IMG/VR virus record: IMGVR_UViG_3300030419_004857
Span: 97,266-161,265 of that record
Origin: a virus
DNA length: 64,000 bases
Direction: 5' to 3' (one strand)
A program made the position numbers and the translations under genes. The notes under the pieces are model-generated. The model made no database searches. It worked only from the letters and a program-made list of their open reading frames with translations, and was not told the origin of the DNA. Of the stretch, positions 36,980-63,822 are shown piece after piece (the first letter of the stretch is position 1; each line of letters opens with the position of its first letter).

Positions 36980-37049
36980 TGTTTTCTCCTATGGTGAGAT
37001 TTCCACATAAGATAGTAACTAAACCATTCAAAAAAAACAAATCAAATAG

Positions 37050-37123
37050 TACCCTCGGCAGGACTCGAACCTGCAACCTACGGTTTAGAAGACCGTTGCT
37101 CTGTCCTGTTGAGCTACGAAGGC
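37050..37123 (-). tRNA. tRNA-Arg(UCU)
   Basis: cloverleaf GCCTTCG...ACGGT-CTTCTAA-ACCGT...GGTTCGAGTCC...CGAGGGT-A. Confidence 0.92.
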
Positions 37124-40871: not shown

Positions 40872-40888
40872 TTTTAATTCCTTTAAAG

Positions 40889-41228
40889 TGGAGGCGGCGG
40901 GAATCGAACCCGCGTCCTGTATAGTTTCCACAACAGCTTCTACATGGTTAGTTTATTGTATTCGCACAACAAACAAGGCTAGCCTGATAAGTTCGGTTGG
41001 TATGCTCAGACGGCCCATATCCAACCTAGAGTGTATTATTAAGGAAACACACTAAAACCTTTTTTGGTCTGATTGGTTAATAAGGCTCAGACCGACCCCA
41101 AGCTACACTAGGCAGCTAACGCATACTGCTTTTCGGCAGTTACTTTTTGGTCAGCTTTTATAGTGGCCAACTGACCAACCACTCCATGCAACTATTACTT
41201 CTGCTACCAGTCGAAACCAATCGCCCCC
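40889..41228 (-). ncRNA. ssrA: tmRNA, tag (A)AEKQYALAA at 41137-41108
   Basis: 5' GGGGGCGA...GGTTTCGAC; 3' GGACGCGGGTTCGATTCCCGCCGCCTCCA with G3-U70; resume context TAACT-GCC; tag ends ALAA-stop. Confidence 0.93.
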
Positions 41229-41234
41229 CTTGTA

Positions 41235-42257
41235 TTAAATACTTGTAATAAACGGCGGGAGTCCCGCCCCTAGAGCTAATGCTACATCTATCTCTGCGGC
41301 ACTATCAACTATATCTTCATTAAGAAGTCTATCGGCTTCTTCAAGCATAGGTGACATTAACCTATCTTTAATTACACTAGACGATTCCCTAACCTTTCCC
41401 GGCACAGAAAATCTACCAGCCCTTTTACCTGATATAACATCGTAGCTATAAAATCCTCTATGTGACTTTCTTCCGAAGTCTTTATTTTTGTATAGTTGAT
41501 GGCATACGCTATTATCAGAAACGGTTATGTGGTCATATGCTTTTGCTATACTTTGAGATCCGTGGTAGATAACATCAAGACCAACGAGATCACATAGTTC
41601 TGCTGGACCCATAGGCCAACCGTGATTTTTCATAACCGTATCTATATGAGAATAGTCATGACCTTCTGAGACCATCTTATCAAACTCAATAAGATAAGGC
41701 ATTAACATTCTATTGACTACAAAACCGCTACAGTCATTGCAAATCAGTGGCACTTTTCCTATAGCTAAAGATGTCTTACATAGAATAGCTACGGTTTCTT
41801 CTGAGGTAGATGAACCTGAAACTACTTCGACGAGAGGCATTTTAGATACAGGATTAAAGAAGTGCATTCCTCCAAAATTGCTTCTGGATGATATGTCTTC
41901 TACTTTAAATGTTGAAGTGTTTGTAGCAACAAACTGATCCACACACTTGGAAACAACTTCTCTCTTTAATGAAAGAACCTCTGGAACTGCCTCTATAACA
42001 AGATCGGAAGATTCAATTGCCTCTGATAGATCAGTTGTGGTTCTGATTAATGGAATATCTTCGGCTAACTTAAATTGACCTACATCTATATCATATAGGT
42101 TGACATTAATAGACGCCTTCTCAGCCAAAACAGAAGCAATACCCATACCCATAGCACCTGCTCCAAGAACAGCAACGGTTTTTGGGATATCGGCGTTGGC
42201 AGAAATTTTTTCTGCTTTGGATATGAGACCTGAATAAAATTTACTATTATCTGACAT
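41235..42257 (-). CDS. 3-hydroxyacyl-CoA dehydrogenase (C-terminal half of a FadB/FadJ-type protein)
   Basis: VLGAGAMGMGIA, IEAVPE, TNTST, GMHFFNPV, GFVVNR, GWPMGP..L.D.VGLD. Confidence 0.9.
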   Translation of the reverse strand: MSDNSKFYSGLISKAEKISANADIPKTVAVLGAGAMGMGIASVLAEKASINVNLYDIDVGQFKLAEDIPLIRTTTDLSEAIESSDLVIEAVPEVLSLKREVVSKCVDQFVATNTSTFKVEDISSRSNFGGMHFFNPVSKMPLVEVVSGSSTSEETVAILCKTSLAIGKVPLICNDCSGFVVNRMLMPYLIEFDKMVSEGHDYSHIDTVMKNHGWPMGPAELCDLVGLDVIYHGSQSIAKAYDHITVSDNSVCHQLYKNKDFGRKSHRGFYSYDVISGKRAGRFSVPGKVRESSSVIKDRLMSPMLEEADRLLNEDIVDSAAEIDVALALGAGLPPFITSI

Positions 42258-42418
42258 TTTTAACCTTGTGTGGAGTATCTTTCCAGAGTAAATAATTTAC
42301 CACTCCCCAGATCGCAAAGTAGTTGGCTTGATCTACATCTCTAAGAGCAAACGATATCATCGCCATACTCCAGCATAAAATATACGCAACATGTAAACAC
42401 GTCTTTAACATTATTAAG

Positions 42419-42490
42419 TACCCCCGGTGAGAGTCGAACTCACGTTACCGCTTTATAAGAACGGCGTTCTAACCGTTGAACTACGGGGGC
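42419..42490 (-). tRNA. tRNA-Ile(UAU)
   Basis: GCCCCCG...CCGTT-CTTATAA-AGCGG...GAGTTCGACTC...CGGGGGT-A. Confidence 0.88.
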
Positions 42491-61366: not shown

Positions 61367-61411
61367 CAGCGACTGAGGAAAGGGCGAAACTCCAAGCCGC
61401 TGTATGTAATA

Positions 61412-61586
61412 TGGGTGGGCGGGACTTACAATATTACCCGCATCTTTTCGGGGTTGGATATGGCAACGGGTTTGACCCGCTTCCCTACTTCCGAACCACT
61501 TCGCACAGCCTCACCCAGTCGGGCCTACTCTGTGCTTGGTGTGCGTTACCGTCTCCAACTGGCTCCGGTTATTCCGCCACCACCCT
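61412..61586 (-). ncRNA. expanded tRNA-like RNA (class II/Leu-like scaffold)
   Basis: GGGTGG/CCACCC acceptor, TGGCGGAAT...AACGC D-arm, GCGGG/CCCGC T-stem; arms enlarged by hairpins. Confidence 0.6.
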
Positions 61587-61604
61587 AAACGGGGAGCTAC
61601 CCCG

Positions 61605-61781
61605 CTACTTAGTTTCCTCCAATGTCACTTTGATCTTCTGAGGTGCGTTCTTGCCGAGAATGTACTTCTGGATGTAGATGGTATTGACCACTGGGGCCAC
61701 CCCCTCATCCGGCGTCTCGCTATATCGCACCGTGTTCTTGGTTTCCTTTTCCAGTTCAAACGTCGCGGTTGTCGTCTTCAT
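61605..61781 (-). CDS. small hypothetical protein (58 aa, not in track)
   Basis: MKTTTATFELEKETKNTVRYSE...TIYIQK...PQKIKVTLE. Confidence 0.6.
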   Translation of the reverse strand: MKTTTATFELEKETKNTVRYSETPDEGVAPVVNTIYIQKYILGKNAPQKIKVTLEETK

Positions 61782-62330: not shown

Positions 62331-62534
62331 CTAATAACAGCCTTCGCTTTCCCCGTGCCAGATTTCGTCAGCGATTGCGAGGGCGTCGTCCTCGTCCTCG
62401 ACATCCGCCACGCATTCGTAAACGAAGTCTTCCGGGCCATCCGCCACGGGTCGCCACACCTCAAACACCCCACCGTATCGGGGGCAGTAGACAACCTGAA
62501 TGCCATCAATCTCGTAAACCACTTCGCCGTGCAT
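62331..62534 (-). CDS. acidic hypothetical protein, paralog of 63502..63822
   Basis: DGIQVV..P.Y...EVW...CVAD shared. Confidence 0.65.
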   Translation of the reverse strand: MHGEVVYEIDGIQVVYCPRYGGVFEVWRPVADGPEDFVYECVADVEDEDDALAIADEIWHGESEGCY

Positions 62535-62566: not shown

Positions 62567-62720
62567 ATTATAGTATATTATCGGCATATGTCAAGGCCAC
62601 TCTCCACTAAATCCGGCACTTTCTCAAAAAAATCCGCTGGCTGGCACACAAGCCGACCCCGCGACATCAAGCGGCGCGGTTGTCCAAAGACACCGCGCCG
62701 TCCCGTTTCACCCGAACCGG
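62567..62720 (-). repeat. early promoter/hairpin cassette, copy E
   Basis: same boxes; 62641-62669 matches 58282-58310 at 26/29 nt. Confidence 0.75.
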
Positions 62721-62815
62721 GTATATAAAACAACCGCCACTCCCGGCCCCGATGAAATATATAAGTATATAAAACAGGGCGACCAACTCGGGAGCAGCGG
62801 CTATATATAATAAAG

Positions 62816-62889
62816 CGAGGACGGCGGGATTCGAACCCGCAACCACCGGATAGACAATCCGACACTCTAGCCTGTTGAGTTACGTCCCC
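62816..62889 (-). tRNA. tRNA-Asp(GUC), atypical U37
   Basis: GGGGACG...TCGGA-TTGTCTA-TCCGG...GGTTCGAATCC...CGTCCTC-G. Confidence 0.85.
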
Positions 62890-62892
62890 GGA

Positions 62893-63075
62893 TCTATAGC
62901 AGGTGGCAAGCCTTTCCACTTTTCACCCTTCACGCTAGAAGGCTTTGACTGGGCTGCTATATGTAAGGTACTAGCCCTATTTATCTCCACCCCTTCTCGG
63001 GGTTTGTAGGCGTGGCTAGATTTACGGCTGTGCCGCTCTGACGCCTCGTTGTTCACTGGTATACACCAGCTACAT
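62893..63075 (-). ncRNA. unknown structured RNA between tRNA-like genes
   Basis: nested helices TATAGCAG/CTGCTATA, AAGCCTT/AAGGCTT, CTAGCC/GGCTAG, ACCCC/GGGGT, CTGGT/ACCAG. Confidence 0.45.
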
Positions 63076-63083
63076 AAAAGTGC

Positions 63084-63229
63084 TGCCCCCGGAGGGATTC
63101 GAACCAAACGCCGCCGGGACGTTTACGGGGTGAAAAAGTGTGTACACACTTACCGGTATCTGTACTGGACACCGGCCCGCCACGATTCTACGGCTTACAG
63201 CCGCGCTCATGCCACCGAGCTACAAGGGC
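63084..63229 (-). ncRNA. tRNA-like RNA (GUA loop) with structured insertion of about 75 nt
   Basis: GCCCTTG/CGGGGGC acceptor, GCTC/GAGC D-stem, GCGG-CTGTAAG-CCGT, GGTTCGAATCC. Confidence 0.6.
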
Positions 63230-63242
63230 TTCACTTGTTTCA

Positions 63243-63256
63243 ATTGTAAAAGAACG
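63243..63256 (-). promoter_or_regulatory. boxA-like antitermination element, preceded by a 13-bp hairpin at 63265-63319
   Basis: CGTTCTTTTACAAT versus rrn boxA TGCTCTTTAACAA. Confidence 0.55.
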
Positions 63257-63400
63257 CTGTATTATCTCCCCCCGGCGGGAGTCGGCTAGCACCTACCAAT
63301 TGGTTACCGCCGGGGGGAGTTGTTGTGCCGCGTTTATACCCAGTCGGTGGCTGTTAGGCTTTCACTTCACCGATAGGGAGCGGCGTTGTTTCGTGCGTGT

Positions 63401-63429
63401 ATTTTACCAGACACGCGGCTGGTTGTCAA
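63401..63429 (-). promoter_or_regulatory. promoter of the stable-RNA operon
   Basis: TTGACA-N17-TAAAAT with extended TG. Confidence 0.75.
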
Positions 63430-63501: not shown

Positions 63502-63822
63502 CTAAAAGTCAATTCCACTTTCGAAATAATCAGGGAACAGCGAGGTTGCCGAGTCAACGTCGAGAGGCGGCATCTCAGTCGAACCCGATTCCCCCGTCTC
63601 ACGCAGCTTTGCGATATGGATATCTTTGGCCTCGTCAATCGCCTCCTGCTGGTCGGGCGTGTCTGCCACACAATCCCAGAGGACGGCTTCCCCGTCTTGC
63701 TCAACCCGCTGCCACACTTCGTAAACAGCGTACTTCGGAGACCAGACCACTTGAATTCCGTCGACCATCCATACCACGTCGCTTGTCATTGTTCTTCCTT
63801 CGTTGTGTTGTATGTTCCCCAT
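63502..63822 (-). CDS. acidic hypothetical protein (start probably 63789)
   Basis: RBS GAAGGA; paralog of 62331..62534. Confidence 0.65.
   Translation of the reverse strand: MGNIQHNEGRTMTSDVVWMVDGIQVVWSPKYAVYEVWQRVEQDGEAVLWDCVADTPDQQEAIDEAKDIHIAKLRETGESGSTEMPPLDVDSATSLFPDYFESGIDF

Follow-up and report, generated by a model that had tools for sequence, protein, structure and literature searches.

Theta ribozymes, minimal ribozymes of the hepatitis delta virus (HDV) type, lie behind phage tRNAs, 77% of them within 1 nt and 4.5% with an encoded CCA (Kienbeck et al., 2024, PMC10879173), and the natural classes of self-cleaving ribozymes known to date number only about ten (PMC10085705). Here we describe an array of small RNAs in a marine phage genome of 161,265 bases (IMG/VR record IMGVR_UViG_3300030419_004857), whose right end, positions 97,266 to 161,265, forms the 64,000-nucleotide stretch analyzed (hereafter the window). 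In this array a tRNA-shaped RNA, T, is followed directly by a pseudoknotted trailer RNA, D. We lean toward reading D as a self-cleaving ribozyme of new fold that would cut between the discriminator base N73 and its own first base, G+1, and so release T.

Judged by its sequence and fold model, D occupies the place of a theta ribozyme without belonging to that class. Both are viral, start with a G immediately downstream of the 3' terminus of CCA-less phage tRNAs, and in some cases have no link to a tRNA; they also share a 7-bp P1 at the 5' end, whose 3' strand runs straight into a short pseudoknot helix. The strand order of D, however, is not HDV-like, and D mostly stands behind tRNA shells that do not decode; its near relatives come from marine data sets, and this phage has neither a CCA-adding enzyme nor an RNA ligase.

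T in turn invites comparison with other RNAs. RNA C and RNA D of phage T4 lie in a tRNA cluster and carry CCA, and a T arm and an acceptor form the end of RNA C. Like the RNAs of the array, they are phage-encoded small stable RNAs of unknown function (rnaC and rnaD; PMC9697503), but they are late RNAs for which neither palindromic arms nor a trailer such as D has been reported, and cultured phage records match our cassette in its tRNA only and D nowhere. GOLLD, ROOL, OLE and manA are non-coding RNAs, several of them phage-borne and near tRNAs, that assemble through kissing loops and, like T, show covariation from palindrome to palindrome (bioRxiv 2024.12.08.627333; bioRxiv 2026.07.01.735769); manA forms cages from an RNA of less than 200 nt (bioRxiv 2026.07.01.735769). 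T differs from these four in its tRNA body and its three or four symmetric loops and matches none of their covariance models. The arms of synthetic RNA nanostars each end in a palindromic kissing loop, and the stars condense. Nanostars resemble T in being one short strand with several arms leaving a junction (PMC11567899, PMC11289419); they are artificial, whereas T is natural, has palindromes of 4-6 nt and keeps a tRNA acceptor and elbow.

By sequence comparison the array is a real, conserved and uncatalogued RNA system. Its RNA classes appear to be new, every family test having failed, while the jobs that we propose for them have known analogues. A search of the literature, with subscription journals outside its coverage, found no description of D, of T or of such arrays.

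D begins directly behind the discriminator base

Search patterns made from the D core only, with no upstream sequence, matched 24 and then at least 119 viral stretches. Covariance-model filtering left 70 distinct viral D copies, counts that include near relatives and related phages and are not numbers of independent events. A T arm lies at most 90 nt upstream in 54 of the 70 copies, and in 49 of these 54 G-C follows the discriminator directly, with no spacer, as it does in none (0/208) of the ordinary tRNAs without D that served as control. By the same counts D shares with HDV and theta ribozymes a G1 (or A1) at the tRNA 3' end. In many unrelated tRNA-shaped RNAs the base next to the discriminator is the first base of D; this base is mostly G and sometimes A, also where D stands behind a hairpin that is not a tRNA. 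The upstream partner is usually a tRNA shell bearing cargo, sometimes a normal tRNA (loci L174 and L179) or a plain hairpin. Shells without D (the L055 family and, one base out of register, L006) tend to end in an encoded CCA, and D is often the last member of its array. At L174 (about 1817-1889) the tRNA before D is read by ARAGORN with a UUA (ochre) anticodon, and L205 (3222-3471) has two tandem D copies inside a tRNA cluster.

The fold of D is compact, about 70-115 nt. From position +2 it forms P1, a helix of up to 7 bp with a strand near the 3' end. The bases directly after that strand pair with the P2 loop in a pseudoknot helix of 2-7 bp, and a variable P4 and optional hairpins make up the remainder. 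P1 and the pseudoknot pair within but not across eight families (permutation p 5e-5 and 1e-4).

None of the ribozyme models compared matches this fold. Our own descriptor of the HDV fold (P1, P2, P3, P1.1 and P4 as a nested double pseudoknot, with L3 and a J4/2 cytosine) fits 0 of the 70 copies, though it was run without a positive control; the Rfam HDV model has no match over D at E values up to 3-10, and the covarying helices give another order. Models of the hammerhead, twister, twister-sister, pistol, hatchet, hairpin and glmS ribozymes have no match over D in the window and 18 other loci. Apparent resemblances to the group I core, glmS, pistol, twister and hatchet were discarded, as the helix order differs and Rfam matches are missing; glmS-like words do occur at the 5' end of D, in a different helix order. 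An engA match also overlaps D in L179, where the model fits across tRNA arms by chance. Neither 141 genomes of the class presumed to include the host (one weak match, inside a gene) nor 48 further records of the gp88 phage family (one weak match, rejected) yielded D. L159 excepted, matches in genome collections were due to chance; this T-D copy lies in a contig that was binned as Gammaproteobacteria and is probably a phage fragment.

T is a tRNA-shaped RNA with palindromic loops

The model of T has 53 pairs, 94% paired, of which 28 change on both sides. T keeps a D arm and a T loop, both canonical, and a 7-bp acceptor stem, in which six of the seven pairs covary and A73 is retained (63084 in the window). 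Its T stem of five pairs is split between positions 51 and 52 by an insert of 80 nt, which in the window folds into three hairpins with the loops GUAC, GUAC and CCGG; the outer triplets of the stem covary (GUG/CAC, GAG/CUC, UUG/CAA), and mismatched combinations are common. The first arm, at the place of the anticodon arm, has 4 bp in the short allele of the window (63203-63191); in most relatives it is about 20 bp long. T has neither the 5-bp stem and 7-nt loop of a canonical anticodon arm nor an unbroken T stem, and gives no ARAGORN call and no Rfam match. Because its anticodon arm is of about 20 bp or 4 bp, tRNA geometry implies that T cannot decode.

T also fits neither of two further known classes. 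As an intron-containing tRNA it matches no intron family, and removal of the insert leaves an abnormal anticodon arm; as a Y RNA (YrlA) it has no Rfam match and no Ro60/TROVE partner gene. In the window the short first arm (63205-63184) closely resembles the inner hairpin of D with its flanks (63038-63020); gene conversion is a possible origin of this allele. Position 8 and the last but one base of the D loop change together, from U/A to A/U (window 63222-63209, L014, L039, L044), possibly as a tertiary pair, with two haplotypes only.

In the relatives three arms of T carry invariant GUAC loops. The fourth carries CUAG in 30, CCGG in 15 and CGCG in one of 46 copies, a palindrome in every copy that has the arm, at positions that the search pattern for T had left free. 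In other phages unrelated tRNA shells occupy the slot of T, and their loops read GAUC, CUAG, UUAA, UGCA and CGCG. Across 37 dissimilar shells, 53 of 91 predicted cargo loops hold a 4-nt palindrome, as against 19.9 +/- 3.9 (maximum 31) after shuffling. The T model does not reach these other shell families, so they are analogous in plan, with homology not shown. Two more such families flank module A, described below, in L055 (9336-9507 and 9583-9751), L060, L095 and L056; they have palindromic loops and no D, and one ends in an encoded CCA.

Adjacent bases cannot pair with each other within one loop. A change from palindrome to palindrome is the mark of pairs between chains in OLE and GOLLD (bioRxiv 2024.12.08.627333), and T shows it in the same way as these symmetric kissing loops. 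Because the palindromes of T switch to palindromes, this mark makes self-assembly the likeliest role of its arms, and we consider it probable that T assembles through palindromic kissing loops. Two alleles speak against this: the short T of the window lacks the first palindrome, and arm 4 of L006 is not palindromic.

The loops could instead be decoys of the tRNA-Tyr anticodon (GUA), directed at anticodon nucleases or tRNA-modifying enzymes and not pairing with one another. G1-C72, A73 and GUA are identity elements of bacterial tRNA-Tyr, and the short allele of the window keeps GUA while it loses the palindrome. Yet the shells in the same slot share palindromy and not GUA, and arm 4, which has no GUA, still covaries as a palindrome; we regard the decoy as doubtful, and as a weaker explanation of the arms than self-assembly.

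Proposed mechanism and alternatives

The scheme that we propose starts from what was observed, namely the sequence elements, the modularity, the secondary structures, the register of D and the covariation of the palindromes. Host RNA polymerase would transcribe the array early from a sigma-70 promoter; Nus factors of the host, recruited by boxA, would let the untranslated RNA escape Rho termination and fold. Host RNase P would cut before T, which keeps the acceptor, T stem and elbow, and D, folding directly behind the discriminator, would cut itself at 63084/63083 and give T an exact 3' end. In the released T the palindromic loops would pair with the same loops of other T molecules, giving a multivalent cage or network with tRNA elbows and acceptor arms on display. 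The likeliest purpose, itself somewhat less probable than not, would be early host take-over or counter-defense, with T acting as a multivalent decoy for the tRNA-binding or tRNA-cutting proteins of the host, a suggestion that comes from the early, hypervariable location only. Only tentatively do we put forward the whole picture: a new structural class of self-cleaving ribozyme in many environmental phages and, released by it, natural "nanostar" RNAs that join through palindromic loops into cages or condensates displaying tRNA, as part of an early arsenal made entirely of RNA with freely combined modules.

Several points weigh against a self-cleaving D. A number of the bases that D conserves best sit at the junction where P1 ends on its far side, 7-8 bp away from the proposed cut in the secondary structure, and were in part fixed by the search patterns. 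In the window P1 is irregular, a helix of 5 bp with additional bulges. Before CCA could be added, a 2',3'-cyclic phosphate end would have to be healed, and the phage genome encodes no CCA-adding enzyme, PF09414 RNA ligase, RtcB or 2H phosphoesterase (nor a TROVE protein), so the phage would rely on the host or leave T uncharged.

The same lack of healing enzymes suits a D that is not catalytic, with host RNase Z cutting after N73 and D serving as a stable RNA, as a block at the 5' end of the exonuclease-resistant type or as a protein-binding signal. RNase Z cuts a CCA-less tRNA directly after the discriminator, which is where D starts. The conserved bases cluster at a junction, and a junction with a loop-to-3'-tail pseudoknot closing near the 5' end may resemble the topology of flaviviral exonuclease-resistant RNAs. 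But D also stands behind hairpins that are not tRNAs, which RNase Z would not cut, and behind unstructured sequence, with the same purine at +1 and the same P1; zero spacing (49/54) speaks for a need of the upstream RNA and not of the downstream one; and a D that ends its array, as it often does, has nothing behind it to protect. We consider a non-catalytic D somewhat unlikely, and the 3' end of T more likely to be made by D than by RNase Z.

T and D might also stay one molecule, D capping the acceptor end of a mimic that is neither charged nor degraded. The two are adjacent in all but one near relative, and P1 could stack on the acceptor stem, but D also follows ordinary tRNAs (L174, L179), which need a free 3' end, and L006 has T without D, so that an uncut T-D seems very unlikely. 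That the features are DNA-level repeats or an assembly chimera with no RNA function is hardly credible: the contig ends do overlap inside T, and the palindromic sequences double as restriction or methylation sites, but independent contigs (L037; L030, L047) contain each of the array's junctions, and G-U pairs, a D-loop/T-loop elbow, pseudoknots and orientation on one strand behind promoters are features of RNA.

D is a compact and widespread fold with a cut site predicted to the base; if it is a self-cleaving ribozyme, as we favor, tRNA-end ribozymes would have evolved twice in phages, with different folds. On the old question of the role of tRNA-shaped phage RNAs, T4 RNA C among them, T offers an idea: here they appear to be built to polymerize.

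A modular array of uncatalogued RNAs

An initial annotation of the window, made from sequence alone, had described the array as an untranslated, promoter-driven cassette of mostly unknown RNAs, and every element it listed was recovered in place on the minus strand. The order is promoter, A, B, boxA, T, D, E and tRNA-Asp (Table 1), and an Rfam search of the cassette returned tRNA-Asp only. The cassette has no credible open reading frame (ORF), as had been noted; the longest stop-free sense frames have 44, 49 and 80 codons, and homologues carry insertions and deletions whose lengths are not divisible by three (T, 185-192 nt; D, 101-106 nt). The stretch 62600-63396 folds with a z score of -5.5.

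Table 1. Features of the array in the window, and further modules in the arrays of relatives
Feature	Position	Strand	Remarks
Sigma-70-type promoter, extended -10	63401..63429	-	11/12 consensus matches; relatives have it at the same spot, directly ahead of the array
Module A, 58-nt stem; internal and apical loops conserved	63327..63384	-	Fold z -2.8; optional, uncatalogued
Module B, three-way junction on a 13-bp stem	63266..63319	-	Fold z -4.9; optional
boxA (putative NusB/NusE site)	63243..63255	-	12-13 nt before T; sole match of the pattern in the window
T, non-decoding tRNA-shaped RNA	63084..63229	-	Covariation, loop counts
D, pseudoknotted trailer RNA, candidate ribozyme	62971..63083	-	Begins at G+1 behind the discriminator
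D P1	63078-63074/62984-62980	-	Pairs near the D 3' end
D loop-E hairpin	63073-63051	-	Fold model
D P2	63046-63041/63013-63008	-	Conserved 6 bp
D pseudoknot	63019-63014/62976-62971	-	P2 loop with the strand after P1
D P4	63003-62989	-	Variable
Module E, 67-nt multi-helix RNA	62895..62961	-	Present in L030, L039, L047; optional
tRNA-Asp(GUC), no encoded CCA	62815..62889	-	62.6 bits; optional last member
Long imperfect hairpin, then T-rich run	62731..62802	-	z -4.4; terminator-like, possible transcript end
Module H	L012 750-871		
Module F	L005 8302-8449		
Module G	L013 174-246		
Module I	L028 2487-2567		
Module J	L021 799-863		
Module K	L019 near 2480		
Module PK1	L011 886-919		

With a pattern made from T we found 44 true metagenome loci, and comparison of the array across them, a synteny check that the initial annotation had proposed, gave the same promoter position and a modular order. 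Directly behind the promoter these arrays are strings of short structured RNAs on A/C-rich linkers, with about 13 RNA module families in 26 orders around a constant core of boxA, T and D. This comparison shows each module to be a small RNA in its own right that recombination adds or removes. Compensatory changes in A, B, T and D exceed those in shuffled and slid controls, which related sequences can beat, so that independent families carry more weight. In A, the structured leader of the initial annotation, 6 of 14 pairs change on both sides and 96% are paired (0/500 shuffles); distant copies occur in L055, L056, L060, L068, L083, L084 and L095. In B 99.6% are paired, three pairs change on both sides and a 16-nt core is invariant.

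The proposed interpretation held in part. B had been taken for a 13-bp hairpin acting as boxB; its stem is real, but it belongs to a three-way junction with a conserved junction of its own, and B is optional, not constant before boxA and missing from many arrays that keep boxA, so that boxB was rejected. A multi-helix RNA of about 180 nt is structured as described but consists of two RNAs, D and E, since relatives swap E for other modules and L056 has E alone behind a promoter; diverged stand-alone copies of E occur in L056 and L108. Processing at a tRNA-shaped unit, part of the suggested release by tRNA punctuation, still appears plausible; the role given to flanking tRNAs holds only in part, tRNA-Asp being optional and boxA-T-D the constant unit.

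boxA stands as annotated. It precedes T in 41 copies in relatives, itself preceded by A, B2, J, G, PK2 or the promoter, and a boxA-like element precedes 8 of 37 unrelated shells, as against 0/210 by chance. The phage alleles are identical to, or one base off, a word in 24 of 29 planctomycete 16S rRNA leaders (two controls, 1/29); the allele of the window is one base off, and relatives as well as the opposite end of the genome carry exact ones. Phage and planctomycete boxA differ from the gamma-proteobacterial consensus (PMC5725501). By its sequence the element is a real boxA and presumably a NusB/NusE site. The array resembles a bacterial rrn leader with boxA/Nus antitermination (PMC5725501) in the sequence of boxA, in planctomycete form, and in its position before a stable RNA; it differs in that no boxB or boxC is apparent, and in being viral, with a short transcript and no rRNA. 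Simple rRNA mimicry is unsupported, as the longest word shared with planctomycete rRNA loci is not clearly above shuffles (14 nt in B2 against a maximum of 13).

With about a dozen uncatalogued RNA families in a cassette of exchangeable parts, the array suggests that phages maintain accessory islands made of RNA only, comparable to their islands of small accessory proteins. Seven uncatalogued structured modules of relatives (H, F, G, I, J, K and PK1; Table 1) have no Rfam match in the loci scanned. Module B2 (L005 8794-8825) is a 32-nt hairpin, identical in 12 copies, with a GNRA loop and a symmetric internal loop that we take to be like that of helix 8 of the signal recognition particle RNA. 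PK2 consists of tandem 28-nt H-type pseudoknot repeats (L007 350-433, L012, L021, L032, L040, L088, L096, L102), presumably akin in form to type III antitoxin repeats and phage pseudo-ToxI.

Genome context and host

The last 8 kb of the genome are GC-rich (0.52 against 0.40) and carry a battery of near-consensus sigma-70 promoters upstream of small genes; between 58 and 64 kb there are 14 promoter-like sites, that of the array among them, against 4.5 expected. By analogy, this pattern would be that of the early take-over regions of large phages. The host is probably a member of the Planctomycetota, because the named relatives of the DUF1501 gene of the phage are from Pirellulales and because its boxA equals the planctomycete rRNA form. 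Record names of several relatives indicate marine sampling.

A second partial copy of the array (G000:C1:1-194; L053, minus strand) runs off the other contig end, with a promoter, a compensated allele of B, boxA and the 5' part of T, and without A; it may reflect either terminal redundancy or a two-strain break. The two contig ends may come from two strains, broken where these differ.

Small acidic ORFs that look alike by eye and have no Pfam match flank the array (63505-63822 and 62334-62534). The window also holds a transfer-messenger RNA (40888-41271) with the tag AEKQYALAA, tRNA-Arg(UCU) at 37049-37123 and tRNA-Ile(UAU) at 42418-42490, and tRNA-Asp(GUC) near gp88 recurs in many relatives. 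A manA-like RNA lies at 61409-61606 on the minus strand (Rfam RF01745, 24.9 bits, E 0.01, under the gathering score), with matches in relatives up to E 2e-8 (L021 3786-3959, L006 7424-7597); the copy in the window has a tRNA-like outline, a hint that manA itself is a tRNA-shell RNA.
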